Of a DNA stretch of 64,000 nucleotides, positions 29,265 through 55,869 are shown piece by piece. The notes under the pieces are model-generated. The model was not told where the DNA came from. It saw only the letters and a program-made list of their open reading frames with translations, and searched no databases. Within the stretch, counting starts at the first letter, position 1, and the number at the start of each line of letters is the position of its first letter. The position numbers and the translations under genes are program-made. The DNA is from Cyanidioschyzon merolae (lineage: Eukaryota), in NCBI GenBank assembly GCA_000091205.1, contig AP006500.2. One strand, written 5' to 3'.

Positions 29265-31655
29265 TCACGCCCGCGTCCGCAGTGCAGATGAGGATGACGA
29301 TTCCGAAGTGCTCGCGCCCACGCTGCGTTCCTGATGCATAGAGACTGTTGCCGTAGAGTCTCTGTGGCAGGAATGTACCGGGTGCAGTTGGCACACGGTT
29401 CGATGCTTCGCGAGCGCTACCCGCGTATCATATGCGAACACACGAACGAACTCGTCGATCGCAAAAGTATTCAGTTCGTTGAGAGCGTACATGTTCCGAA
29501 ACGCAGCAACGGCCCGACGGTAAGCGCACGGGTCATAGTAGAATCCCTGCAAGGCCAAGGAGTGGGCTCGTTGCATATCCAGCCTACCGTGCACGGCAGC
29601 AGCAGTCTGTGCGGAGCAGATTGAGCATGAAGCCTGGTCTGCCACAAAGGCACGAATGTAGGCCTCCTCGCCGATGCCGCAGCACACATCCGGTGGAAAT
29701 CGAGCCATTAACGCAGCCAGTCGATAGACACCAAGGGCGTACAGCTTTGACAGCGACTGATGCGCATTGCGCACCAGCGCAATGATTCTGCTGATGCTCG
29801 GAATTTCACGCGTCAGCGGAAGTGGCGGTATCGAAGCAAGCAACTGTCCAGCATGTTTGATTTCCCGAACGGTTGGCGCAAGCTCCTTAAGATCGGTCAA
29901 CACGGGGCGCTCACCGTTGGTCCGCAGGGACGGGTGCGTCCACAGCGACGCGGCAGGCGCACTGCCGTCCGCCAGCGGGTGAGCAACAGCATCTGCAACT
30001 GACAATGCAGACGGCGCATGAGGTAAATCCCCCTGGTGATGCGACGCTTCGGATGCAGCGGATGCAGAAGCATTGGTCCTCCCTACAACCTTTTGTATTC
30101 CGGGTGTTTGCTGCGCAAACTGCTGGCAATGCGTCAGCGATCCCCTCTTCTGCTCAGCCTCGGTGCATTCCAGATGATTTCCTTGGAGCATGCGCTCGCC
30201 GCTGCGATTCCGCGCTGCTGAGCGCGCTGCCGGCGCCATAAACAAAGGTGACCAGGCCTCCTCTGGTTCAGTGCCCTGAGAATCGGTTCGCGAGCACCGC
30301 CGATCAACCGTTGCCGTCGCGCTTGTCTTGAGGCATACCCGCGAATACGGGTCCGTCATGTCAACAACGCTCGATTCCAGATTGGACGCATTTGTACAGA
30401 ATGAACGATCGTTCTCTTGAACACAGAATCCGTGGACGGCGGCGACCATGAAAGCCTCTTCAGAAGCGCTCATCAACCCCTGTTCGCGTGGATGCGTTCC
30501 ATGCGATACCGAAAAAACGGAACAGGCAGGATCCCCGACGTTTCCGGCATAGATGCGCGATAAATCTTGATCCATGCGGTGCGTGCTTTCCCATCCGGGG
30601 TATTCGCCAAGCACAAAGTTTGCGTCCGTGGACGCAACCCGCTCGTCTTCGTTATCTTCGGCGGCGATCGTGCGATGGCTCACTTCACCGTAACCCGAGC
30701 TGGCCAGGGGCCATGCTGAAAGCATTGGCATCCGCTCCCCCAGCCAGGCATCCTCAACATTGTCGTATAGCGTCTGATCCGCCATCAGACGATGCTCGCT
30801 CGACACCCCAGAGTTCGTGGTATTCGCCTGGTCATCCACGACAACGCTGTGGCAGCGATCCCTTGGCGATGAGTGCTCACCTTCATCGGCATCGTCCCCT
30901 TCTGAAGGAAAACAAGTCCAGAGATTGGCTGGGAGTCTCGCAGATGCGTACGTTGTTTCTGATTGGTCCCCTCCCGGTACCGCCTGCTGATACTCGTGTA
31001 ACGGTGCGAGACTGACTGCCGATGCGGAGCGCTGGAGTCTCCCGAATCGAGCTTGCTCGCCGCTGACGATGGGGCCCCTGCGACGCCGACCGCGACCCGG
31101 CTTACCCACGCCGCTGAGAGACCATGAAGCATCTCCAAACTGTGCCCAGGAAGCGCTCCGTGGAAGCGTATGCGTCGCACCGCGAACAGATACCCTAGTC
31201 TGGCTTCGGCTACGGGCCAGCGAGCGCTCGCGCCCTTGAGGCTGCGTGATGCGGCGGTTCAGTGTTGCAGGTGTCGCACGACTACGACTGTTTTGAGCGC
31301 CAGTGCCGAACTGGCGACTTCTCCCAGCAGCGGATCCACGATCGGCTGCTTTGCGCACCTCATCTGTTGTCGGTGCTGAAGACGTTTCTTCCCCGTCCAC
31401 GATCGGTCGCCGGTTCGTGGACGCACCCTGCGCGAAGCCTTTTCCGAAACCCCGGGGTGCCGCACTGCCACGGGTTGCGTTCACCGCCAAATCTCCGTAG
31501 GAGTAGGTCACCCCGTCGATCACAAGCGCAAGCTTCCCCTTCTTCCACTTGACCCCACAAGCGTTGCACAGTGTCTTGGCACCCGTAGGTCCCGCCCGCC
31601 ACAGGGGCGTGTCGTTCGTCGAGCACGATATGCAACGCAAACTGTTCGAAACCAT
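29265..31655 (-). CDS. GATA-type zinc-finger transcription factor
   Basis: 796-aa ORF starting 'MVSNSLRCISCSTNDTPLWRAGPTGAKTLCNACGVKWKKGK', the canonical GATA finger (CxxC-x17-CxxC with TPLWR and LCNACG). Confidence 0.7.
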   Translation of the reverse strand: MVSNSLRCISCSTNDTPLWRAGPTGAKTLCNACGVKWKKGKLALVIDGVTYSYGDLAVNATRGSAAPRGFGKGFAQGASTNRRPIVDGEETSSAPTTDEVRKAADRGSAAGRSRQFGTGAQNSRSRATPATLNRRITQPQGRERSLARSRSQTRVSVRGATHTLPRSASWAQFGDASWSLSGVGKPGRGRRRRGPIVSGEQARFGRLQRSASAVSLAPLHEYQQAVPGGDQSETTYASARLPANLWTCFPSEGDDADEGEHSSPRDRCHSVVVDDQANTTNSGVSSEHRLMADQTLYDNVEDAWLGERMPMLSAWPLASSGYGEVSHRTIAAEDNEDERVASTDANFVLGEYPGWESTHRMDQDLSRIYAGNVGDPACSVFSVSHGTHPREQGLMSASEEAFMVAAVHGFCVQENDRSFCTNASNLESSVVDMTDPYSRVCLKTSATATVDRRCSRTDSQGTEPEEAWSPLFMAPAARSAARNRSGERMLQGNHLECTEAEQKRGSLTHCQQFAQQTPGIQKVVGRTNASASAASEASHHQGDLPHAPSALSVADAVAHPLADGSAPAASLWTHPSLRTNGERPVLTDLKELAPTVREIKHAGQLLASIPPLPLTREIPSISRIIALVRNAHQSLSKLYALGVYRLAALMARFPPDVCCGIGEEAYIRAFVADQASCSICSAQTAAAVHGRLDMQRAHSLALQGFYYDPCAYRRAVAAFRNMYALNELNTFAIDEFVRVFAYDTRVALAKHRTVCQLHPVHSCHRDSTATVSMHQERSVGASTSESSSSSALRTRA

Positions 31656-31949: not shown

Positions 31950-33830
31950 ATATTCGGAGGTGGTGGCGGCTGCGGCCGCCCGCCGTTGCCAGGATTTCTG
32001 GCGGTACGCCTCCCGGTCTACTTGGACTAGGCACCTGCTGCTGATTTTGTTTTCTGCTTATATGATATCACCTTAAGAGGTTGCCCGACAAAGCTGGCTC
32101 TCATTAGCTCCGGGGGTCGCTTAATCATCAACACGCATCTTTCTATATTGATAGCGGCGTTAAAGTCTCGGTTCACAAACTCTATACGTTGATTGCCGTC
32201 GGTAGTTGTACTCACCAGTGCGAGTAGTCCAGGAACTTTTGCCCTGCTTTCCATTTGCTGTTTGGTCAGCGCTCCGTACTTTTTTATATCCTCAGAGTTC
32301 CACTGGCACTTTTGCATCTCGACCCTTTGGATTGTACACCTCGGCTCGTGGTGTGTATGTATGACGTTCGGAACTCATCTATCGGTATTGTGAGAAAACG
32401 GTGTGCGTACTCGTTGTACGCTCGTGTCGACGGAGCGGGCGTAGACTCTTTTTCGGACGCCCAGTGCCCTGATCCGTACGCTACTATAAGCCTTTGTCTC
32501 TCGTCTTCGTTCAGGGCACTCAACTGGTTGAAAAAGTTGGCAAATGCACGCTGCTTCCCATAGTATAAGTTCATGTGCTGACGAGCCCACCGGGCGGCTT
32601 GGTATACTCCTTTCACAGCTCCTCGTCATGAGCAGCGCGAAGTGGTATGAATTCTCAGAGGGCTCGAAAGTTCGCTCCGCGACTCGTCATTTTGCTGAAC
32701 TCCTCCCTGCTTACATCGAACTTCGGACTGATCTCTTTCATGATGCCGTAAAGGGCTGCGGAGTCGATTGTCACAAAATGTGCATTGATCTCGCATAACG
32801 GAACGACATGGAAGCGCTTACCCGGAAACGCAGCCATTCGTTTCTCCGACTCTTCATTTGCTTGCACACCTGGTTCCATCTCCGCCTTGCGTTCGAGTTC
32901 TCGGTCCAAAAACACGAAAGGGCGCAGGATTAGGCGATAGCATCTTTCTTCATCTTTTTTCAACGCTGGCATCTTTTTGTGCTCAGTTGACAAACCCTAG
33001 GACCGTGCGGCGCTCTTGGATGGCCACATGGAGTAGAGAAGCTTCATTCCTTCTCCTGCGTGACGTCTTCCTGTCGACGAATTCGATCTTCTGTTCATGC
33101 TGGCGATCGTCCGAAATGCCATTGATGATGGTCCGTATCCTTTTGCGAGAGAGGCGCGGGTAGAGTCCAAACATGGAACGTATCATGAAACGTTCGAGGT
33201 TCATGTTCAAATGGTTTTTCAGATTCGTGAGACACTTTTTAGACCCGTATTCATACATATTATCGTGACCCCTGTATCGAGTACTGTTGGAGCGGAATTT
33301 GGCGTAATTTTCGTGGAGGCCCTGCACTCGCTCATTTCTCCTCGACATTTCATATGTGCCCAGTATCAAGTGGCGAATGAAGGTCTTGTTGAAAAATTCC
33401 TTCGGAATCTCGGTTGTTTCCATATGCGTCACGTCGCGATTCGTCTCCCACACCAAATGCACGAGTCCTGAAGAACCGTTTCGAATGCTACTGGAGTAGG
33501 ACGCCACACGCTTTCTGATAGTCTCGTCCATCCTTGTCTCGTACGGATCCTTGCAATGTCCAAGAAGACAGGGTTTCACTACCATCTCGATGCACTGTCG
33601 TCTTTCTTGCAGCCATTGACGTCTGGCCTCCTGCCTTAGCTTCTTCGTGTTGTCTCGTTCATCCGGGATCGGCTCTGTTTTCGTTTCTTTCCGTCAGCCG
33701 GCGACAGTGGTCCTCCAGGATCCTCCACTTCCATGTCCATAGCTTGCCTTTTTACTTTTGAAAAAGAACGCACTTTAGACACTTCTGCTATAGACCCCGG
33801 AAAATCACTTGAGTAGACTATACTGGAGAT
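31950..33830 (-). mobile_element. old, internally deleted copy (copy 3) of the Fanzor/TnpB-like element
   Basis: Four -strand ORF fragments in different frames (32027..32317, 32284..32616, 32655..32993, 32983..33585) are homologous to the N-terminal, central and C-terminal parts of the nuclease in copies 1/2. RuvC-III 'FVNRDFNAAINIERC' and 'IPIDEFRTSYIH' are present. The RuvC-I region is deleted. Flanks show diverged homology to the copy-1 termini. Confidence 0.55.
32027..33585 (-). pseudogene. TnpB/Fanzor-like RuvC nuclease gene remnant (frameshifts plus ~250-aa internal deletion)
   Basis: see mobile_element 31950..33830. The N-terminal 200-aa ORF is ~50% identical to ORFs 49441..49707 and 48676..49398 of copy 1. 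Confidence 0.55.
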
Positions 33831-35541
33831 TAAAGTACAATGGAGATGAAAAACTATGCTTCGATATGACTTTAACGCGTATGCACCTTGTACGTTAGAT
33901 AAACACGCTAAGTGTAAGGATCGCATTTCCCTTCAATCACGAGATGCGCTTCCTATCTCACGCCTGCCAGATATGATGCTGCGAGTATCGACTGCACTAT
34001 ATAGAAAATAGAACAGAAATTATCCAATAACTAGCAACGAGATTGGGATTCCTTTCCGTCTCTACGATAAACGTTAAAAGGAGGAAAACGTTTCCACACG
34101 TTCAAAAGTCTACCGTATAGGCGGAAGGTCCAGCGACCCGGAAGAGTGCGCCGGGCTCGTGCTCCATACCCCCAATAGCAGGTGCTTTAGAGCGATCTGA
34201 GCAGCTCGTATCGAGCGCAATTCATTCTGGGATTCGAAGCGGGTAGTACGCGCCTGCGCGTCGCCCTGGTCTCCTTAGATATCGATTCGCGCTGTCGCAG
34301 GCAGTAGGTCCGTCTGCGCAGCTTGCAGGCTCCCAGCATGATCATTAGCCCTGATCCCGTGTCAGGTGTTGCGTTATTCGAGTCGACACCCTCAGTGGTA
34401 TGGCGAAGCCGTTTTGTCTCCGTGCAGCACCCGCTCCAGCGATATAGGCGCTATGGTAGGTTCCCAGGACAGGCACTTGGCTTACGATAGAACGCAAGAA
34501 ACGACCGGTGCGTCCGAAAGAATGCATAAGTAATGGAGCTTGAAGGTAGATGCTTCATGATGGACGCTTTCCAGATCATCAATACCCGTCCCGCAGCAAG
34601 GGATCCATGGTCACGATAAACGTTTCGTCATCTGAAAAAATGACAGCGGCTGCACGAAAGATTGCGCAAAGCGTTGGCTGATCGCCGCATATTGTTTGTT
34701 GGATGCGAGCATGTTGTCGATGCGTCTACATGGGTACGGCAATGGCAGCGCCTATTTGTTTGAACGCACTATGATTCCTGAAAGCAAGTCTGAGCGGCTA
34801 GTCGCACGACCTGTGGACTTGTGCAGCATGACGAATGCTGGTCTTGATACTGATCGTCATCGCACCGTTGGGGTTCCCAGGCTCGGTTCAACGATCCCAC
34901 TCGATTCGAAAAATCGATTCTGGAGCGTCCAAGCAGCACGTGCCTACTCAAGAAACCCTCATGGAAGGCACCAGCGCGCTTCTTCGCTCCACAGAGCCGA
35001 CGAAGGTCAGTGGCAGCAAGGCGGTATCGATGCTGATATCACGGGCGGAAGATCTCACGAACGTAAACAGCCCCCGTTTAGCCATTTTTGACACGGAGGA
35101 AGCCCTGTCACAACGCCACGGTTCCGCCCAGTGTGCCAGTGAAACACGGAAACCGCGATGCATGTTTCCGAGCTTCGCACATCTCATCAAGGCTTTCACG
35201 TTTGTTCTGCGTAGTCCTCTGAAAAATTTCCGGTGTGCCTTGGAGCCGGCCCCGGTTTCCATTTACAAAATAGAGGATTCTGTAAGCCAAAGGTCTTCCT
35301 ATGCGTACAACAGCGCTGCTGGTCGGATGTGTTTCAGCAGTATCGAACACCTTGCGCAGCGTTGCGAGGCGAGAGCCCCGTTCACGGCACCCGATGCGGT
35401 CGATAGCCCTGTATCATCATCCACGTGAGCATCCCGCACAACATTAACCGGCTTCGCAAGGCAGCACTAACCGTGGAATACGCACCGGCATCCGGTTCAC
35501 GGACTCTGCAAGATACATTCACTGCGCGTCAGTGCAGGCCG

Positions 35542-46300: not shown

Positions 46301-47197
46301 TCATTGCGGATGATTGATTCCACCATGGACCGGGATATGAACTACGTGTTCTTCGTAAGCTCCGTGATGAATCGACGTCCGCACCAGCTGCATCTGTTTC
46401 GAAACTATTGCCACGCACCAGGCCAGGAGTCCAGATACCCAGGGACTGTGGATGCAACCCTATGGCAGGGTATGCGGGCCTCGTCGGCGGCTCCGACGTT
46501 TTTTTCGGAAATTGTATTGAATGGACTCATTCACGCAGATGGAGCTCTGGTTGCGAATAATCCCGCAGGGGTGGCAGCGCACGAGGCACGCCGCTTGTTC
46601 CCGAATGTGCCTATCGAGCTCTTGGTGAGCGTGGGAACCGGAGTCGCCGAGAAGACTAGCCCTCTATCGCCGCTAAGCACCACGGACAGTGGTGTGTCCA
46701 CGGGCACCAGAGAGGGCAGCGGTGGCGACGGCGGTGCCTCAACCGAGAGCGAAGCTGCGAGTGCGCTTCGTGAAGCTGCCACGACTTCGGCGATTTCCGC
46801 AAGTGGTGGTGATGGTGCAGATGCCGCAGCTGCTGCCGTCCCGAGCCGAATGAGCTGGAACGACGTGATCAACTCGATTGTGGACTCTGCAGTCGGCACC
46901 GAGAGTGTGCATCACATCCTGGAAGATGTGTTGCCTGCAGATGTTTATTTTCGATGCAATCCAGAGATCAGCGTGATGAATATTGATGAGGTTCGTCCCG
47001 GCAAGCTCATGGAAATGATTCGATGTGCACAGGACTACATCGCCGCGAATGCTGATCGCTTTGATGAGTTAGCGGCACGGCTGCGCCCGAAAATGCCCCA
47101 GAATTTACTAGAACGGATCCGTTTTGAGCTGCAACAGGAGGCCAGTCTGATTCTCGACTTGGACGATGCACGGGAAGGGCCACTTCCTGCGCTTTAG
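43325..47197 (+). CDS. patatin-like phospholipase with an N-terminal armadillo-like helical region (iPLA2/PLAI-like)
   Basis: 1290-aa ORF; patatin motifs 'ILALDGGGTRALMSFEILKHL' (GGGxR), 'ICGTSTGAIIAG' (GxSxG) and 'DGALVANNP' (DGA/G dyad); preceded by ARM-like repeats ('LANLTNVLPRCKPQILRYPGLLDGLLRILE'). Confidence 0.75.
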   Translation: MSFAVAMAFVTFGVVSGGTGRQPLADRSPAFLNQHPRKTSRSVRCRRRRFSRKVSRRCLLKLCSVAERQSSDSVRREQGQKRGSSSSASSRDERYARNAAEQRQASDSVSTETRARVSRALLQGAQGVGLGLYWIARQAVRVCVPMARSAFSQLSTLVQDHSSRAFTSVGVQSQPEPHHKPYVASEADEAARARPNDTAVGADRAQRRSNHKKRGPRSGPPSGANAPEQADEMSARLRRKYLRSFGSIPEVVLFDLVAECEMRKQFALPEETPSNMSLLGQRACYIPYELQRIIFDEILTPDFAASDADRDLFQSSNTSIPLGAKHTLRATDGSAASTPRAPEVAVPVPVHIMDSLVAAVAPWSAGTGSPGSAPKAANSPNDWSQTATAPRVGVQGESPASTSNLDDMVPAAAAAAAAAAGQVSVDSSARRGSMLYIPISALGSLWQAISAMSAGGRKRREEAQRIRTYSNAADAMAREDAVMAGLAGADGGSTMASAFATASAIMASTPTRSPSIPVQGAEAGTTASTRETEQKASRPTNGSVESIEVLSRPQASAANLGNQQKRDRTESKEGTGAKQSAPVNPSSASAASAAATSTEVAAADAAESPLSKDKTRNWWSTLFSFTWPRPRNAVDSGSATATNSEDHAIESIQRLLLSRHYGAGAGHGPVDAAVFDELVDRVEQLTLRAAAEAAMAIRTRKQAIAFLEEVGVAPLLNALSMTDSLQLSRPDAGRRRNSNSNTNLDDETASQRKRPQQEQQREAAFTVSLAVAALANLTNVLPRCKPQILRYPGLLDGLLRILEAPVAGESWEMQGKWSACMLIGTLMMDAATSDRALFFRNRRLVRVLESMAGGTRVGYPEDVARASRRALACLGVHHWRPRVRGQRGLRILALDGGGTRALMSFEILKHLTKLTGCQLHEMFDIICGTSTGAIIAGSLGIRRRPVEEVESLYRELIGKIFAKKLSSAPKMLLTRAYYDTDLFESILKREAGSLRMIDSTMDRDMNYVFFVSSVMNRRPHQLHLFRNYCHAPGQESRYPGTVDATLWQGMRASSAAPTFFSEIVLNGLIHADGALVANNPAGVAAHEARRLFPNVPIELLVSVGTGVAEKTSPLSPLSTTDSGVSTGTREGSGGDGGASTESEAASALREAATTSAISASGGDGADAAAAAVPSRMSWNDVINSIVDSAVGTESVHHILEDVLPADVYFRCNPEISVMNIDEVRPGKLMEMIRCAQDYIAANADRFDELAARLRPKMPQNLLERIRFELQQEASLILDLDDAREGPLPAL

Positions 47198-47228
47198 GGG
47201 ATGGACAAGCCACCACCGCCGTTCTAAG

Positions 47229-47396
47229 TCGAACGACGCCAACGGTATACAGTAGTGGCGACCGGCGCCCTAGACGAAACGTCTCCAACTGACGTGCAGA
47301 CGCCTCCCCGCCTTTTTGGACCGGCCACCTACTACTGCTTCCAACTTTTTCTCGTATAGTTCGACTTTGAGAGGTTGTCCAATAAAGTTCCCTCTT
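47229..47396 (-). ncRNA. candidate omegaRNA scaffold region (overlaps the 3' end of the ancestral nuclease ORF plus a short flank)
   Basis: The 3'-terminal block is far better conserved between copies 1 and 2 than the upstream coding sequence. It ends in a hairpin with an 8-bp perfect stem in the solo copy at 54379-54401. The position matches where TnpB/Fanzor omegaRNAs are encoded. No direct evidence of transcription. Confidence 0.25.
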
Positions 47397-49707
47397 CATG
47401 ACTTTGGAGGTGTTTTCTCCAGCACCGCACATCTCCGTATATTGATAGCGGCATTAAAGTCTCGGTTCACAAATTCCATACGTTTCTTCCCATTGGTAGT
47501 TGTACTTACTAGTGCACCTAGTCCTCGCACTTTCGCTCTACTTTCCATTTGCTCCTCCGTCAGCGGTCCATACTTTTTCATATCCTCAGGGCTCCTCTGG
47601 AAATTTTCCATATCCACTCTCTGAAGTGTACAACCCAGCTCATGGTGTGTGCAGGACGTTCGAAACTCATCTACAGGTATTGTAACAAAACGCCTTGCGC
47701 ACTCCTTGTACGTTCTTGTCGTTGGAGCTGGCGTAGTTCCTTTTTGGGTCTTCCAGCGCCCTGCTCCATACGCTATTACGAGCCTTTGAGTCTTGTCTTC
47801 TTTGAGGGCGCTCAACTTATTGAAAAAGTTCGCGAATGCCCGCTGCGTCCCACCGAATAGATTCATTCGCAAACGAGCCCACCGGGGCTTGATATACCCC
47901 TCCCACAGCGCATCCCAATGGGCAACACGAACTTCCATGAATTTCCGAAAAGCTTCAAAGTCCGCGCCTCGGCTCGTCACCTCGCTCGAAGATTCCAGGT
48001 GATCCTTCATTCCTGCATTCCATGCAGCAATTTTCTTCCTTGCATTCATTATACCGGACTCTCGATAGTATCTTGCTCTCGAGAACCTCAACAAATGCAT
48101 GTCTTTCAGACGTAAGTTGCCGTCAATGCAATCTTCCGCACACTTTGGTGCTGCGATGGTAATGATATTCGTGTTCCCAGGGTCCATGCCAATGACAAAG
48201 TCGTTATCCTGCACTTTCTGCGCCGCAGGACCCGCCTCGTTCTTTTCTTCATGCTTCGTCGCGTCAAGCATAAAGGCGTTATCCTGCACCTCCTGCATCA
48301 CAGGATCCGCCTCCTTCCCAACTTCATCCTTCGTCACATCAACGATAAAGTCGTTACCCTCAATCTCCTGCGCCACAGGATGCTCCTCTTTGTTTTCTTC
48401 ATGCTTCGCCGCGTCAACGACAAGCTTGTTATCCTCCACCTCCTGCGTCGCAGGTTCCGCCTCCTTCTCATCTCCATCCTTCGCCACGTCAACGAGAAAG
48501 TCATTATCCTCCACCTCCTGCGTCGCAGGATACACCTCTTTGTTTTCTTGATCCTTCGTCACGGGTGCAGCCGAGTGAGGGACTGGCCGATCTCTCTTCA
48601 ACCGCCGATAGTGTGCACACAAGGCTACTCCATCGGTTTCGATCATCCCAGTGAACAACTTTTGCTTGCTCACTCTCAGGCGTTTGAAATCGAAGATGTT
48701 CTTCCAGTACGTCTTCCGGTTTTCACCGGAGAATTCCTCCCTGCTGACACTGAACCCCGGACTGATCTCCTTAAAGATGCCGTAAAGGACGCCGGAGTCG
48801 ATAGTCTCAAAACTTGAATTGATCCTGGACAACGGATCAGCGTGGGAGCGATTCTCCAGAAGCGCAGCCTTCCCTCTCTCCGACTATTCGTTTTTTCCAC
48901 ACCCGGCTCCATGTCGGCCTTGCGTCCGTGCTTTCGGTTCAGAAACATGAAACAGCGCAGGATTAGTTGATAAAATCTCTCTTCGTGTTTTTTCATATTA
49001 GGTAATTTTCCTGTTGGACTGAGTAGCCCCAAGACCGCACGGTGCTCTTGAATAGTCGCGCGGATTACGGAAGCTCCATTTGTGCTCCTGCGTGATGTCT
49101 TCTTATCGACAAATTCGATCTCATCTTCATACTTTCGATCGTTCGTGATGCCGTTGATCATCCCCCATATTCCTTTGCGAGAGATGCCCGGGTAGAGTGC
49201 AAACACGGCGCATATCATGAAACGTTCCGGGTACATAGTTAAATGGTTCTTCAGATTCGTGAGGTACTTCTTCGGCCCGTAGGCGTAAATACACGAGTCA
49301 ACCCTGTATCGGGTACGCTCGAAGCGGTATTCGGCGTAGTTTTCGTGGAGAGCGTGCACTAGCACATTTTCCTTCCGCGCTTCCCCTGTACCAAGCATCA
49401 GGTGACGAATAAAGGTCTTGTGGAAAAACTCGTCTGGAATCTAGACCGTTTCCATGTGCGCCACATCGCGATACATCTCCCTCGCCAAATGCATCAGTCC
49501 TGACGACGTCTTGACAATACTCTTGGAGTACGAGTCGACACGTTTTTTGATAGCGTCCCGCAACTTTTCCTTGTAGGGATGCTTGATATGTCCAAGAAGA
49601 AAGGTTTTCACCACCATCTCGTCGTACAGCCGTCTTCCTTGCCGCCTTCGACGTAGGGCCTTACCGTTTCGGTCCTTCTTCTCTTCTTTTTGTTCTGGAC
49701 TCGGCAC
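47396..49707 (-). pseudogene. TnpB/Fanzor-like RNA-guided-nuclease-family gene (RuvC-I, Zn-finger-like, RuvC-III), disrupted
   Basis: Three collinear -strand ORFs (49441..49707, 48676..49398, 47396..48832). RuvC-I '[21 protein letters not shown]', 'LVIAYGAGRW', 'VTIPVDEFRTSCTHHELGC' and C-terminal 'FVNRDFNAAINIRRC' match the TnpB D...E/ZnF...DxNAAxNI layout. In-frame TAG at 49441-49443 ('METV*IPDEF' where copy 3 has 'METTEIPKEF'). Frameshift near 48700-48830, where copy 3 reads straight through. Stop is premature relative to copies 2 and 3. Confidence 0.7.
48197..48565. repeat. ~72-bp minisatellite (5 units) inside the copy-1 nuclease ORF, encoding 24-aa repeats directly N-terminal to RuvC-I
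   Basis: Units 'gtcgttatcctgcacNtcctgcgccgcaggacccgcctc...catgcttcgtcgcgtcaagcataaag' repeat head to tail. Protein repeats '[25 protein letters not shown]' etc. The last unit becomes '[14 protein letters not shown]'. Copy 2 has a single unit. Confidence 0.75.
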
Positions 49708-50151
49708 TATATTTGGGTTTTTTTGGCAGCCGGCGACACTGGGCCTCCAGGATCGTCGACTTGCTATTTACTAGCTTTTCCGTTTTTTAGTTTTTTTTTG
49801 AAAAAGAACACTCTTTGAACGCTTCTTTTATATTCTACGAATAAACACTTGACTAGACTTGTTTGAGGGCTGGAACAAAAACGAACTGAAAGACTGTACC
49901 TGGCTAAGACCTCAACAGAAAACCAACTTTTTACAGCTGAACACCACGCTATTGATACCAATCGAGTTTCCCTTTAACGGCGACGCGGCGCTTTCGGAAC
50001 TCGATCCGCCGCATCTCCCGGCTGGATCCTGCTGCGGTTCAGAGACCGCAAGTCGAAAAGTGTGTGGCTGTAGTTGAAGGCAAATATGGTGCACCACGCG
50101 GCAGTAAACAACAGAAATAGGTTGTGAGACGCGACAGTCGTGCGATGAAGT

Positions 50152-50943
50152 GTGTGGCGGCTTCTGCAGCGCTCGTCGTCAGCCACTCTTTTAAAACATA
50201 TTGTCGTTCTTCTATCAACTGTGTTTGCAGAAGACTCTACTGTAAAACGTTTGACCAGGTGTGATTCGAAACGATCGGAAATGTTGCGCAAAGTATCCTT
50301 AGTGTTCCTGGTGACCCTGCTCTACGTGCTCGCTGCAGTTGTGTCGAAGCCGGTGCGTGGGCTCTCTCAGAGCAGCACGATTGCCGAGCTGCTCGCTGCG
50401 TCTCCAAGCTCGTACCTGCAGAACGCGCTCACAAGCGGTGCGTTTCTCGTGAATAACTCAGCCGGAAGTATTCAGTTGTTTGACGTTACACAGAACTCGT
50501 TGTTAACGAGCGTGGGCCTCTCTACCCTGATATCCACGTTGAACAAGTGCGGTATCCAGGAGCTGCACGTGCAGACGGACGCGATCGAGTACGCGTACGT
50601 TGTTGAGGGTGAGGGCACTTTCACGCTGTGGTCGTCTAACGGCTCGGTGGTATTGTTGAAGGCCCCCTTGAAGCCTGGCGACGTGGCGATTATTCCAGCC
50701 GGCTGGCCGCACTTTTTCACCGGGTCCGAGACGTCCACGACGCCGCTGGTCTTTGTCTCGACATTCACCAGCGGAGAGCCACAGGTTTATTTCCTGGCTG
50801 GTGCTGGGAATCTATTCGCGAACGTGCCATCCGAGGTCGGTAGCAGTCTGTTTAATGTTACCGCGTCGCAGTACGGATCGTTTTTCAGAGCGGAATCGAC
50901 TGTGGGTGTCGTCTTTAATGAGACCTGTTTGGGGAATGCCTGA
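50152..50943 (+). CDS. secreted cupin (germin-like) protein, tentative; probable start at the Met near 50282 (signal peptide 'MLRKVSLVFLVTLLYVLAAVVS')
   Basis: 263-aa ORF; 'PGDVAIIPAGWPHFF' resembles germin motif 2 (PxGxxHxxxN-like) and 'ELHVQTDAIEYAYVVEGEG' motif 1; N-glycosylation-like sites; lies between the two young Fanzor-like elements. Confidence 0.4.
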   Translation: MWRLLQRSSSATLLKHIVVLLSTVFAEDSTVKRLTRCDSKRSEMLRKVSLVFLVTLLYVLAAVVSKPVRGLSQSSTIAELLAASPSSYLQNALTSGAFLVNNSAGSIQLFDVTQNSLLTSVGLSTLISTLNKCGIQELHVQTDAIEYAYVVEGEGTFTLWSSNGSVVLLKAPLKPGDVAIIPAGWPHFFTGSETSTTPLVFVSTFTSGEPQVYFLAGAGNLFANVPSEVGSSLFNVTASQYGSFFRAESTVGVVFNETCLGNA

Positions 50944-51094
50944 ACGATTTGAAATCGGGAGATATCAGTGCTGCTTGCGAATGCTGTCGGGGATGTAGCT
51001 CTGCTGCGCTCCGTTGGTTACATGGACAGGAAATTTGCGGATTCTTAAAAGATAGATACGTGACGCCGCTGCTAGCGAGCCCCTTTCAAAACAA

Positions 51095-53523
51095 AAACGC
51101 TGCCGCTATCAGTACAAAAGTGGCTACCAACGCGCCCTAGACGAAACGTCTCCAACGGACGTGCAGACGCTTCCCAGTCTTTTTGGACCGGCCACCTACT
51201 ACTGCTTCCAACTTTTTCTCGTATAGTTCGACTTTGAGAGGTTGTCCAACAAAGTTCTCTCGTGTCCACTCTGGAGGTCTTTTCTCCAGCATCGCACATC
51301 TCCGTATATTGATTGCAGCGTTAAAGTCTCGGTTCACGAATTCCATACGTTTCTTGCCATCGTTCGTTGTACTCACCAGTGCGAGTAATCCCCGAACTTT
51401 CGCCCTCCTTTCCATTTGCTCTTCCGTCAGCGGTCCGTACTTTATTATATACTCAGGGCTCCTCCGACGCTTTTCCATCTCAACCCTTTGAAGTGTGCAC
51501 CCCAGTTCATGGTGTGTAAACGATGTTCGGAACTCATCTATTCGTATCGTAACGAAACGCCTTGCGCACTCCTTGTACGTTCTTGTCGTTGGAACTGGCG
51601 TGCTCCCTTTTCCGGGTACCCAGAGCCCTGCTCCATACGCTACTACAAGCCATTGGCTCGTCCCCTTTGAGGGTGCCCGACTCATTGAAAAAGTTGGCAA
51701 ATGCACGCTGTTTTCCGCAGTACAGATTCATATGCAGACGAGCCCACCTGAGCTTCGCGTACTCTTCACACACCTCCTCGTCATGAGAAACGCGAATTTT
51801 CATGAATTTCGGAAGAAAAAAAGAAAGTTCAATCGACGGCTCGTCACGTGCCTGATCGCTTCCAGATTCTCCTTCACTCTTGCGTTCCATTTCTCACTTT
51901 GATTCCTCGCATTCATCATTGCTTGTTCTCTGTACTAACTCTCTCTCGAGAACTTTAAACGACGCATGTCGCTCTGGCATAAGTTGTCGTCAGCGCCATC
52001 TTCCAAACGTTTGGGTGCTACGATGGTTATTACATTCGTGGTCCCGAGGTTAAGGCCGACGACAAGATCGTTATCCTGGGGATTATACGTGCCAGGGCCC
52101 GTCTTCTTGTGTTCGTGCTTCGGCAAGGGCGACAATGTAGATGAGGTAGGACGATCTGCCTTCAAGCGCTGATAGTGTACACATATGGATTTCCCATTGT
52201 AATCGATCGTCCCCGTGAATGCCATTTTTTGCTCGTTTTGAGGCTCTTGAAATCGAAGATATTCTTCCAGTACGTCTTCCGGTTTTCACCGGAGAATTCC
52301 TCCCTGCTGACACTGAACACCGGACTGATCTCCTTAAAGATGCCGTAAAGGACGCCGGAGTCGATAGTCACAAAACTTGAATTGATCCTGGACAACGGAT
52401 CAGCGTGGGAGCGATTCTCCAGAAGCGCAGCCTTCCCTCTCTCCGACTATTCGTTTTTTCCACACCCGGCTCCATGTCGGCCTTGCGTCCGTGCTTTCGG
52501 TTCAGAAACATGAAACAGCGCAGGATTAGTTGATAAAATCTCTCTTCGTCTTTTTTCAAATTAGGTAATTTTCCTGTTGGACTGAGTAGCCCCAAGACCG
52601 CACGGTGCTCTTGAATAGTCGCGCGGATTACGGAAGCTCCATTTGTGCTCCTGCGTGACGCCTACTTGTCGACAAATTCGATCTCATCTTCATGCATGCG
52701 ATCGTTCGTGATGCCATTGATAATTGCCCAGAATCCTTTGCGAGAGATGCCCGGGTAGAGTGCAAACACGGCGCATATCATGAAACGTTCCGGGTACATA
52801 GTTAAATGGTTCTTCAGATTCGTGAGGTACTTCTTCGGCCCGTAGGCGTAAATACACGAGTCAACCCTGTATCGGGTACGCTCGAAGCGGTATTCGGCGT
52901 AGTTTTCGTGGAGAGCGTGCACTAGCACATTTTCCTTCCGCGCTTCCCCTGTACCAAGCATCAGGTGACGAATAAAGGTCTTGTGGAAAAACTCGTCTGG
53001 AATCTAGACCGTTTCCATGTGCGCCACATCGCGATACATCTCCCTCGCCAAATGCATCAGTCCTGACGACGTCTTGACAATACTCTTGGAGTACGAGTCG
53101 ACACGTTTTTTGATAGCGTCCCGCAACTTTTCCTTGTAGGGATGCTTGATATGTCCAAGAAGAAAGGTTTTCACCACCATCTCGTCGTACAGCCGTCTTC
53201 CTTGCCGCCTTCGACGTAGGGCCTTACCGTTTCGGTCCTTCTTCTCTTCTTTTTGTTCTGGACTCGGCACTATATTTGGGTTTTTTTGGCAGCCGGCGAC
53301 ACTGGGCCTCCAGGATCGTCGACTTGCTATTTACTAGCTTTTCCGTTTTTTAGTTTTTTTTTGAAGACGGACGCGTTTCTTACGTGTCTACTATAAACCA
53401 CGAAAAACACTTGACTAGATATGTTTGAGGTGTGAAACAAAAACGAACTGAAAGACTGTACTTGGCTACGACCTGAACGGAAATCCAACTTTTTTCGGTA
53501 GAACAACACGCTACTGATCAGGA
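51095..53523 (-). mobile_element. Fanzor/TnpB-like element, copy 2 (~2.4 kb), more decayed
   Basis: Six -strand ORF fragments in shifting frames (51137..51706, 51534..51890, 51935..52225, 52162..52395, 52368..52595, 52662..52961, 53004..53270). 5' half nearly identical to copy 1 (ORF 53004..53270 = ORF 49441..49707, 88/88 aa). 3' half about 80-85% identical, with the full-length C-terminus '...FVNRDFNAAINIRRCAMLEKRPPEWTRENFVGQPLKV...RFV'. Confidence 0.65.
51137..53270 (-). pseudogene. TnpB/Fanzor-like nuclease gene, copy 2, with multiple frameshifts and the same in-frame TAG as copy 1
   Basis: RuvC-I 'DNDLVVGLNLGTTNVITIVAP', 'LVVAYGAGLW', 'IRIDEFRTSFTHHELGC', 'NRDFNAAINI'. TAG at 53004-53006 identical to copy 1. 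Confidence 0.65.
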
Positions 53524-54333
53524 TGGCGTTCCCCTTCGACGAAGGCATGCGCATCGTGTCAGTTGACTGACTGATCTCCCAGTTGCGCTCATTTAGCGCA
53601 ATGCATCCACTGCGCGCGACGCTACTCCGATCGATGAAGGACACGTGTCCGATACCCCGCCTTGGCACATGCGTGTTCGCATCCCACTGCAGCCAAAATA
53701 AAGTATCGTAGATCGCAAACTCACGTAGAATGATCTCTTGCTACAGGCTCTGTCGCTGGTGCCCATTGCAGTACCGCCCTGACATACGTGGAGATGTAGG
53801 GGCCTGGCACGATACCTCGCGATGCTTCTAACAAAAGCATCGCGTTCTCTGCGGCTTACACTTGTGTGGATAAGGTACACAACACTGTACTCAATAGAAA
53901 TTTCGTTAATTTTATTGATCGTATATAAACAAGACACGGAATGATTCCTGACCAAGGATATTCGTTTAATCAATATGCTTGTTATGCATGCCGCACCGAC
54001 ACTGGAATAAGGACCTGAACTGAAATTTGCATCTATCCGGCGTCATGGGCTGGAACTGATACCCGTTCAAGTCATTGCCATCCTGCCGTGGTTGTCCAAG
54101 TAATGGTGCCTGCTTCGTCCTCCGGATCCGGCGATCTTGGCAGAGGCAGAGCACGTAGGTAGCGTCCAAGTCTGCCACGAGGTTTGAGCCTTGCATCTCG
54201 CCTGGCACGATCGTGGCACTTGACAAAAGCGCATACTGTATTCTGGTCTACTCTATCAGATTATTTTCAAGAGCCTAACCCGTACATCGAGCCCGAACGA
54301 GGCACCCCTGGAAAGAAACGCCTTTCGAAAGTC

Positions 54334-54400
54334 GAACGGCGCCAGCGGTGTACAGTAGTGGCGAGTGGCCCGCCCTAGAAATGACGTCTGCAACTGACGT
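54334..54400. repeat. solo 3'-terminal fragment of the Fanzor-like element (~65 bp) with a perfect hairpin
   Basis: 'agtcgaacggcgccagcggtgtacagtagtggcgagtggcccgccctagaaatgacgtctgcaactgacgtgcagacgc' aligns to 47229-47290 and 51095-51170; stem 'cgtctgca'/'tgcagacg' with a 7-nt loop; homology stops abruptly after the hairpin. Confidence 0.5.
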
Positions 54401-54793
54401 GCAGACGCATCCAAAATAAGATACCACCTCAGGAAATTTCCTTATACCTCCTCTACGGTATTCGTCGGCGAGCTACGTGGAAGTTCGTCTACGATTGTTG
54501 TGATCTCTGAGCGCAGCACTGCGGAACCCTTGGCACCAATTACTGATGAGGTTGTTGATGGGAAGCATAGGAGTTCTGTCTAGTTTCTGAAAAAGACACT
54601 GAGCGCTTGTGCTAGATGTGCTCAACGCTAGACAGTCTACGGGAGATTTAGGTCGGACTCTGGACAATTGACGGGCGATCACTCGTGCAGCTACGCAAAA
54701 GAAGTTTTTTGCTGGATACGCACACCTATGCGAGCGATTCTAGCCGGTGACGTGATCGGCAGCTTTGCACCGGAGAAAATCTAATCCAAGAAA

Positions 54794-55869
54794 ATGCAAG
54801 CCCTATTCGTTTCTGTTCCGCTGTACCAGGAAAGACATATTGTTTGCGCGCGCGCTGCAACTCGAGCACCGTTCCCGCTGTGTACCGAACATGACAGGTG
54901 CTTCGCAGCTCGATACCGTCACCGCTGTCACCATCCGCTGCCCGTGGGGGTGCAGCGTTCGCCTGTAGTGCGCCGGCATCGTATGCCGCATCTTCGTATG
55001 GGCCCGAAACAGTCGCAGATCGCCGTGATCACTGGCTCGTCCTCTGGGGTCGGTCTGTATGCAGCTCGCGCTCTGATCAACAAGGGCAACTGGAACATCG
55101 TCATGGCATGTCGTGACGTCGACCGGGCGGAACGTGCAGCAAACAGCGTGAACCTTCCAAAGGACGCCTATACAGTGCTGCATTGTGATCTGGCAGATTT
55201 CGCCTCTGTGTTGAAGTTTGTGAGAGCGCTATCGAGTGTGGCGCGCATCGATCACCTGGATGCCCTGATCTGCAATGCCGCAATATGGCATCCGCAGGAC
55301 AAGAAACCGCGTTTCACGGTGGGCGGCATCGAGGAAACCATGCAGGTTTGCCATCTGAGCCATTTGCTTCTCTGTGGGGAGCTGTTGCCGAAGCTGAAAA
55401 AATCGCGCAGGCGCATTGTGTTTCTGACGACTCAGACACACTCGCCGAATTCGTTGCCGGGAAAGATCCCCCGCTGGCTCGTCTCGGGGATTCGTCTAGT
55501 CTAGCCGCGGGGCTTGGTCCGCAGACGACGGACATGGTAGAAAGTGGCCCGTTTGAGCCCACAAAAGCTTTCAAAGACGCCAAAGCCGAGAACGTGTTGA
55601 CAATGAAGGCGCTCAGTGATCGATACGGCCGCGACGGGGTGACCTCTGTGGCGATTTTCCCGGGATGTGTCGCCGACAGCAACCTCTTCCGCGAAAAGCG
55701 TGGCTGGTTCCGCTACGTATTCTTCCCGATTCTTCAGAAGTACATCACTCGGCAATACTTTCCCAATGATGAGGCCGGACGCCGTGTAGCCGAAATGGCG
55801 ACCCAGGGACAGTTCTCGGACTCGGGCTCGTATTATCAGTGGCGTGGCAAATATACGGATGGGGGATAG
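54794..55869 (+). CDS. por: light-dependent NADPH:protochlorophyllide oxidoreductase (POR), with a +1/-1 frameshift at a C5 run near 55475-55480
   Basis: ORFs 54794..55504 and 55285..55869 together align to POR from memory: 'IAVITGSSSGVGLYAARAL..WNIVMACRDVDRAERAA..LPKDAYTVLHCDLADFASV', 'ICNAAIWHPQDKKPRFT', 'YKDAKAENVLTMKALSDRY', 'FPGCVADSNLFREKRGWFRYVFFPILQKYITRQYFPNDEAGRRVAEM..SDSGSYYQW'. Frames switch exactly inside 'aaagatcccccgctg'. Confidence 0.75.

Follow-up and report, generated by a model that had tools for sequence, protein, structure and literature searches.

The closest described relatives of the repeats studied here are the CMe-1A elements, one Fanzor1 family of Cyanidioschyzon merolae that was described by Bao and Jurka (2013, Mob DNA 4:12; PMC3627910) as ~150 copies of ~3 kb, each ~80% identical to the consensus, with no terminal inverted repeats, target-site duplications left undetermined, few intact copies, and 5′ 635 bp that equal the separate element TE-N2_CMe. 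Herein we analysed a 64,000-nucleotide stretch of C. merolae DNA (contig AP006500.2; hereafter the window), in which two repeat copies on the minus strand, copy 1 and copy 2, lie on either side of a cupin gene. The two share a nearly identical internal tract of ~1.1 kb set between strongly diverged flanks, a mosaic that we attribute, with a probability of roughly 80%, to ectopic gene conversion in place between two decayed Fanzor1 copies that were inserted independently and long ago.

Two CMe-1A-like elements on either side of a cupin gene

The window copies resemble the published family in their host, single Fanzor1 open reading frame (ORF), length of ~3 kb (2.85 kb for copy 1 and 3.15 kb for copy 2), high copy number and inter-copy identity (72-88% in our data, ~80% in the family), as well as in the broken state of most copies (a long open frame was present in just two of the 82 fetched loci) and in a ~630-nt 5′ module that only some copies carry. 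Terminal inverted repeats were looked for in the window elements and, as in the family, none were found. By its published description, rather than by an alignment to the consensus, the repeat fits the CMe-1A family. The family is thus one already published for C. merolae, and the process that we propose for it is an ordinary one; the CMe-1A paper differs from the present analysis in reporting neither gene conversion between copies, nor hairpins at the ends, nor two subtypes of 3′ end (PMC3627910), and in the literature searched gene conversion had not been described for CMe-1A copies. The features that carry the argument are as follows.

47201..50050, minus strand: copy 1, a CMe-1A-like Fanzor1 element of ~2.85 kb that lacks the ~630-nt 5′ module (bounds from end mapping and a 5′ hairpin)
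51072..53605, minus strand: core of copy 2, heavily decayed; the full copy 2 runs to ~54220 (3.15 kb)
48690..49802, minus strand: putative conversion tract in copy 1, which holds a 632-nt perfect run at 49171-49802
52253..53365, minus strand: putative conversion tract in copy 2, interrupted at 52645-52733 by a single unconverted patch (85.4% identity with 49082-49170)
50281..50943, plus strand: host cupin gene (ATG 50281, stop 50943; Cupin_1, E = 5e-18) with a hydrophobic N-terminus

Mosaic identity between the two copies

Self-comparison of the window returned three repeat copies on the minus strand, at 47217-49974, 51095-53540 and 32006-33952 (the first two approximate), of which copies 1 and 2 are separated by 3,563 nt (3.56 kb) in the same orientation. 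Copy 1 was compared with copy 2 by global alignment and by sliding-window and segment identities, which gave the following profile along copy 1.

47210-47283: 69% identity
47284-47384 (51151-51251 in copy 2): 95% identity
47229-48189: 78.7% identity
48190-48564: present in copy 1 only, five 75-nt tandem repeats (303 gap columns)
48565-48689: 64.5% identity
48690-49081: 98.7% identity
49082-49170: 85.4% identity (13 mismatches)
49171-49802 (52734-53365 in copy 2): 100% identity, 632 nt without a mismatch
49803-49984: 75.7% identity

Homology between the copies is lost past ~50050. The profile is not uniform, in agreement with a preliminary description of the locus that had proposed a mosaic: a high-identity tract of ~1.1 kb (98.3% over 48690-49760) lies between flanks that are only 64-79% identical, and a perfect run of 632 nt has a probability of ~1e-36 under uniform divergence (86.7% overall identity, 2,429 aligned columns). 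Some of the figures in that description change with the measurement. Its ~98% for the 5′ halves is right for the inner 1.07 kb and falls to 95.2% over 48660-49962, whilst the 3′ halves, put at ~80-85%, are 76.6% identical over 47229-48660. The ORFs 49441..49707 and 53004..53270 are indeed identical over 88 aa, and 49583..49774 and 53146..53337 are equal, both of them lying inside the perfect run.

The mosaic also places the two copies differently within their family. Outside the tract (47431-48190), 83 of the 85 other family matches, drawn from the 82 fetched loci, are nearer to copy 1 than copy 2 is; inside it, the best other fetched locus reaches at most 83.5% identity, and the nearest-neighbour ranks are reversed. 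An internal tract with diverged sequence on both sides, and with different nearest neighbours inside and outside, is the pattern left by ectopic gene conversion. The two copies had been called young. What is recent is the tract; the copies themselves are old pseudogenes, and local conversion within them accounts for their youthful look. The block at 47284-47384, which lies at the 3′ end of the ORF, had likewise been taken as terminal, but the last ~70 nt differ and the two copies carry distinct 3′-end subtypes. At 95% identity the block stands above the family norm (mean 81-87%, 95th percentile 87.7%); besides constraint across the whole family, a further short patch of conversion may be involved.

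Tandem duplication was rejected, because a duplication with a period of 3,563 nt would have included the cupin gene, which is single. The earlier preference for gene conversion or recombination between diverged members over tandem duplication is therefore upheld, by the internal tract, the single cupin gene, the nearest-neighbour reversal and the strain-specific shared changes described below, as well as by the unlike 3′-end subtypes and 5′ architectures of the two copies and by the inactivating mutations that both have in the tract. Selection is another process by which the 5′ parts could have stayed identical, acting on a functional N-terminal domain or on a promoter of the cupin gene, whose start codon the leader of copy 1 faces from ~230 nt away. 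However, the 100% identity extends equally to synonymous and non-coding positions, the tract contains a stop codon and a frameshift common to both copies, no other family member exceeds the above 83.5% over the same stretch, and the cupin-adjacent leader (49803-49984) is precisely the part that is not conserved (75.7%). We give selection a next to negligible chance of being the cause.

Changes shared by both copies in related strains

The same locus was recovered in metagenome contigs from short-read assemblies, of which L003 and L086 are 97-99% identical to the window and L088-L091 are 95-97% identical. In L086 the two copies are mutually identical across 49171-49802. At ~16 sites in 49270-49692, both window copies share one base while L086 and L003 have another base in both of their copies; these concerted changes, for which metagenome assemblies serve as the sister lineages, include the nonsense codon at 49441-49443, where position 49443 gives a stop in both window copies and Glu in L086, L091 and L088. 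Because these strain-specific substitutions, nonsense codon included, are shared between paralogues, copying between the two elements would have taken place after the strains diverged.

The borders of the tract vary between strains as well. Copy 2 of L086 lacks the unconverted patch (49082-49170), which is converted there. In 48761-49081, copy 1 of L091 shares only 68-82% identity with the window, whose sequence copy 2 of L091 matches there, and the reverse is seen in 49558-49900, where copy 2 of L091 is only 70-82% identical. Read from the sequences, the tract borders and the paralogue-shared alleles support several episodes of conversion that ran both ways and postdate the separation of the populations.

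The same strain data bear on the possibility that one copy was already a recombinant when it inserted, through template switching or recombination before or during transposition, so that conversion in place need not be invoked. With 353 relatives in metagenome contigs, and 1,508 cluster representatives in an exhaustive profile search, the family is a large one; leader modules are shuffled among its subfamilies, so recombinant elements do exist. Nevertheless, an internal tract with a diverged 5′ leader would need two switches, the nonsense codon and the frameshift in the tract are common to both copies, no other fetched locus is more than 83.5% identical to the tract, and borders that differ between strains, together with paralogue-shared alleles, require events after both copies were in place. 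We consider a recombinant origin before insertion unlikely.

Two further contigs join element sequences that are separate in the window. In L004 (Ga0209012_1012097), the upstream flank and leader of copy 2 are joined to the 3′ half of copy 1, without the cupin gene, and the contig is either the product expected of a cupin-deleting crossover or an assembly chimera. In L087 (Ga0506611_000132), copy 1 gives way at ~47550 to the element of the L030 locus (99-100% identity), next to a helicase gene, and the contig is either an ectopic recombinant or, again, a chimera. Both contigs switch partner inside element sequence and were rejected as evidence of mobility. Repeat pairs of this kind can mislead age estimates of transposon copies, and they cause chimeric metagenome contigs or real deletions, as in L004 and L087.

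That family repeats visibly confuse metagenome assemblers in these two cases also favours a technical explanation of the identical tract, namely that two diverged copies were collapsed onto one consensus during assembly or polishing. The unconverted patch at 49082-49170 and the sharp borders would not be expected to survive such a collapse, though, and two copies in this arrangement, sharing long stretches of near identity, are also present in the independent assemblies L086 and L088-L091. The cupin protein of the window, whose exact match is what ties the window to strain 10D, is in addition 100% identical to that of 10D, and the C. merolae 10D genome was finished by clone-based Sanger sequencing. 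An artefact in the window is very unlikely on these grounds.

Proposed history of the two copies

In the history that we favour, two CMe-1A members would have inserted independently and long ago, one between the patatin and cupin genes and the other between the cupin and short-chain dehydrogenase genes, and both would have decayed to pseudogenes. Non-crossover homologous recombination would then have transferred sequence from one to the other on several occasions, with either copy as the donor, and with the outcome that an internal tract of ~1.1 kb is 98-100% identical and the leader, 3′ half and ends are as different as those of any two members. The bracketing of the cupin gene would be a coincidence of two insertions in neighbouring short intergenic regions of a compact genome. 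We infer both the recombination mechanism and the order of these events; what the data show directly is the mosaic, the protein family, the pseudogene state, the phylogenetic incongruence and the strain-specific changes that the paralogues share. Ectopic gene conversion as known from elsewhere is alike in its internal, sharp-bordered tract, its patchy mosaic, its same-orientation partners a few kb apart, its paralogue-shared lineage-specific substitutions and the possible crossover deletion product (L004); nothing is unusual here beyond the documentation of the process for a Fanzor element pair. The locus has some value as a small and clear case of transposon relics that evolve in concert within a highly compact eukaryotic genome.

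Several points weigh against this history. The strain comparisons rest on short-read metagenome contigs, among which L004 and L087 are recombinant or chimeric in the repeats, and the paralogue-shared alleles in L086 could partly reflect a collapsed assembly. The direction and the number of the conversion events are likewise inferred. Furthermore, a further five pairs of neighbouring elements at the fetched loci share 70-82% identity and have no homogenised tract; because these pairs are no closer than that, conversion between neighbours is not a general rule in the family, and proximity alone is no guarantee of it.

A more specific cause can be put forward for conversion in place. TnpB-type nucleases have been described in a 2026 review as promoting transposon retention via break-induced gene conversion (PMC13565253), and on that basis the conversion could be a by-product of cuts made at, or close to, family members by intact Fanzor1 copies located elsewhere in the genome, with the neighbour as the repair template. 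Such repair of Fanzor1 breaks would be the eukaryotic counterpart, directed at paralogues, of the "restorative homing" shown for bacterial TnpB. The architecture of the repeat, with hairpins at its ends and neither terminal inverted repeats nor a target-site duplication, suggests a related idea; it could be likened to IS200/IS605 elements and Helitrons in moving as single-stranded DNA with a trans-acting enzyme that the element does not encode. Either proposal strikes us as quite doubtful.

Fanzor1 identity and decay of the encoded protein

The pseudogene of copy 1 and its one distinctive insert are located as follows.

47270..49707, minus strand: Fanzor1 pseudogene of copy 1 (three-frame translation, tblastn with the intact homologue P0001, profile and fold match)
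48190..48564, minus strand: five acidic tandem repeats of 75 nt (25 aa), directly upstream of RuvC-I; nearly absent (~1) in copy 2

Joined together, the minus-strand frames of copy 1 give a conceptual protein of ~800 aa. Searches with single sequences of the window ORFs against Pfam, NCBIfam and the Protein Data Bank (PDB) gave no match, and neither did a shallow 18-sequence profile against PDB. In addition to the exhaustive profile search mentioned above, a word-indexed search returned 44 close relatives, all of them from JGI metagenomes. A profile of 44 diverse members matched PpFz1 of Parasitella (E = 1.3e-18), SpuFz1 of Spizellomyces (3.5e-14) and GtFz1 of Guillardia (3.8e-6) in PDB, with no other significant match there. 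The DPG, DEFRT and NRD motifs align with those of the Fanzor1 structures; across the 44 diverse members there is no variation at D217 (GxDPG) or E389 (DEFRT) and hardly any at D458 (NRDxNAAxNI), and the RuvC Asp-Glu-Asp triad is complete in copy 1, whose motifs read GMDPG, DEFRTS and NRDFNAAINI.

An AlphaFold model built on a shallow alignment (pLDDT 34) was not used, and the alignment was then deepened with distant relatives, after which the model reached a mean pLDDT of 75, with values of 85-96 for residues that do not belong to the repeat insert. Among the Foldseek matches of this model in PDB, the first seven are all Fanzor1 (E = 5e-9 to 8e-6), followed by Cas12o, TnpB (8H1J) and Fanzor2. 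Because the profile and the Foldseek matches both lead to Fanzor1 structures, the repeat protein is predicted to be a Fanzor1, the eukaryotic relative of the RNA-guided nuclease TnpB. Sub-threshold Pfam matches of relatives to Cas12f1-like_TNB (E = 0.002-0.09) were not relied on. In the Fanzor-type rearrangement, the catalytic Glu is found a few residues ahead of the zinc-finger motif (PMC13565253); in DEFRTSCTHHELGC the Glu precedes the first Cys by five residues, a second Cys pair is lacking in the C. merolae subfamily, and the wider family keeps one zinc-finger Cys, in RGLLWC.

Compared with the Fanzor1 proteins of solved structure (SpuFz1, 8GKH; PpFz1, 9CF0; GtFz1, 9CER), the window family is alike in its RuvC triad, motif positions and fold, and may also be alike in a putative structured 3′ region that extends beyond the stop codon as far as the end of the element. 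It differs in sharing only 11-19% identity with them, in the 25-aa repeat insert before RuvC-I and in the missing second Cys pair, and both window copies differ further in being pseudogenes from which no activity is expected. Three lesions interrupt the reading frame of copy 1 ahead of the native stop, TAG at 47270-47272, namely a stop codon in frame at 49441-49443, a frameshift near 48835-48890 and, late in the ORF, a premature TGA (47396-47398). Intact family copies, of the L002/L013 type, have an open frame of 819 or 778 aa. Copy 2 has at least three frame changes, at least six stops and a change of the RuvC-I Asp to Asn. Neither window copy thus retains the intact ORF of a Fanzor1, and judging from these lesions both are predicted to be inactive, relics of the family rather than working members.

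The number of 25-aa repeats varies among family members, P0009 having more of them than copy 2, and the repeats are predicted to be disordered (AlphaFold pLDDT <50, residues 83-203). An insert of tandem repeats ahead of RuvC-I is unusual for a Fanzor or TnpB protein.

The cupin gene and its neighbours

The preliminary description had noted that the same-orientation copies bracket a gene-bearing segment, which is correct: they enclose ~1.0 kb (50051-51071) with the cupin ORF. The order of genes is patatin, copy 1, cupin, copy 2 and short-chain dehydrogenase. The cupin gene is single-copy between the two elements and its product is 100% identical to C. merolae 10D BAM82655.1, an "unknown cupin family protein", and ~50% (52%) identical to a Cyanidiococcus protein. 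Its homologues in related algae (70-80%) and in Cyanidiococcus (~50%) have no Fanzor sequence nearby, and homologues in other contexts were found in L083, L084 and L085.

The bracketing had been likened to a composite transposon, in which the flanking elements would jointly mobilise the cupin gene as cargo. Same-orientation copies on either side of a single 1-kb gene-bearing segment do have that geometry, and in L087 the part of copy 1 on the cupin side is joined to another flanking gene, the helicase; the likeness goes no further than the geometry. The elements encode a homologue of the Fanzor1 nuclease, and no ORF with a transposase domain is present in 47200-54400; both copies are pseudogenes; their outer-end subtypes do not match, and only copy 2 has the 5′ module. 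The breakpoint of L087 lies inside copy 1 (~47550), which argues for homologous recombination or a chimera and not for transposition of a unit, and, as far as their flanks extend, contigs with the identical cupin gene show the same neighbours as the window, with patatin present in L086 and the dehydrogenase side in both L086 and L088-L090. No whole unit bounded by the outer ends was seen at a second site, among metagenome contigs and exact-protein look-ups only. The cupin homologues at 70-80% identity, finally, exist in related algae without Fanzor flanks, which counts against a mobile unit. Bacterial composite transposons such as Tn5 and Tn10 are alike only in that two element copies flank a gene, and the window locus differs from them in having no transposase, dead copies, non-matching outer ends, no second location and no known target-site duplication. 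We therefore hold joint mobilisation to be highly improbable, and regard the cupin gene as a resident host gene between the elements, not as cargo.

On the far side of copy 2, the short-chain dehydrogenase (54794-55869, plus strand) is split over the overlapping frames 54794..55504 and 55285..55869, and a single dehydrogenase gene is called there in L086 (320 aa) and L090 (403 aa); the split could be due to a frameshift, an intron or a pseudogene. The L055 contig was considered as an empty-site comparison and set aside: it has the dehydrogenase side and an element at the position of copy 2, but a Myb gene downstream, and its synteny is uninformative.

Element ends and hairpins

The ends of the elements were mapped by aligning 80 metagenome loci to copy 1. 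The 3′ end of copy 1 falls at 47210 (47201 when aligned with L019), which is 4-13 nt past the patatin stop codon (47195-47197), and its 5′ core reaches at least 49984 in the 80-locus alignment. The 5′ core opens with a GC-rich hairpin (50033-50050 in copy 1, 53585-53599 in copy 2), and three hairpins recur within the last ~130 nt of the 3′ end.

47217..47306, minus strand: 3′-terminal structured block of copy 1, with the three recurring hairpins
47276-47306: hairpin H1 of copy 1
around the native stop TAG at 47270-47272: hairpin H2 of copy 1
47217-47238: terminal hairpin H3 of copy 1, 10 bp, of the type CGTCGTTCGA-CTTA-GAACGGCG
51079-51100: terminal 3′ hairpin of copy 2, of the other subtype, GCGTTTTTG-TTTT-GAAAGGGGC
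54311..54412, minus strand: solo 3′-end block of a third element, with hairpins H1, H2 and H3 only, ~90 nt upstream of copy 2
53606..54220, minus strand: extra 5′ module of copy 2 (~615 nt), found in a subset of the family only and not in copy 1

Two subtypes of H3 occur, CGTTCGA-CTT-TCGAACG and CGTTTTTC-TTTT-GAAAGGCG, and both fold. The CGTTCGA/TCGAACG type is present in copy 1 and in the solo block (54319-54342), and the CGTTTTT/GAAAGG type in copy 2; conservation ends ~7 nt past H3. When a structure specified by hand was laid over 48 3′ ends, 80.7% of the cells were paired, against 40-58% in slid controls. Covariation in this structure was not above that of shuffles (52/500), RNAalifold returned only six pairs on the 3′-end alignment, and the sole Rfam match of the 3′ end was a sub-threshold MIR156 that we take as chance. 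The block is a plausible candidate for an omega-RNA scaffold or for the right end of the element, and the mapped ends and hairpins could help to define the omega RNA of the family and its transposition mechanism. Hairpins at both ends without inverted repeats also recall the ends of IS200/IS605 elements or Helitrons.

The 5′ module of copy 2 is matched by L016 (78%, to 54219), L026 and L082 (75%, to 54030) and L074 (81%, to 53828), and, going by the published description, is probably the equivalent of the 635-bp TE-N2_CMe portion of CMe-1A.

Other family members and arrangements

The third copy in the window stands apart from the exchange between copies 1 and 2.

32006..33952, minus strand: copy 3, degraded and with internal deletions; it shares 72-75% identity with copies 1 and 2 and has no part in the conversion

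It sits just past the start of a GATA zinc-finger gene on the minus strand (29265-31655). An arrangement like that of the solo block and copy 2, in which a 3′ end is followed within 0.1-2 kb by an element in the same orientation, was also seen in L082, L060/L080 and L051/L052, and hints at insertion beside existing right ends or at internal deletions. The element copies have a G+C content of 48-51% and a negative GC skew, compared with 55-60% G+C in the surrounding host genes (window positions 47000-54000 against their flanks). Head-to-head inverted pairs of elements occur in L036, L039, L045 and L013, with arms of 1.2-1.6 kb that are 72-82% identical.

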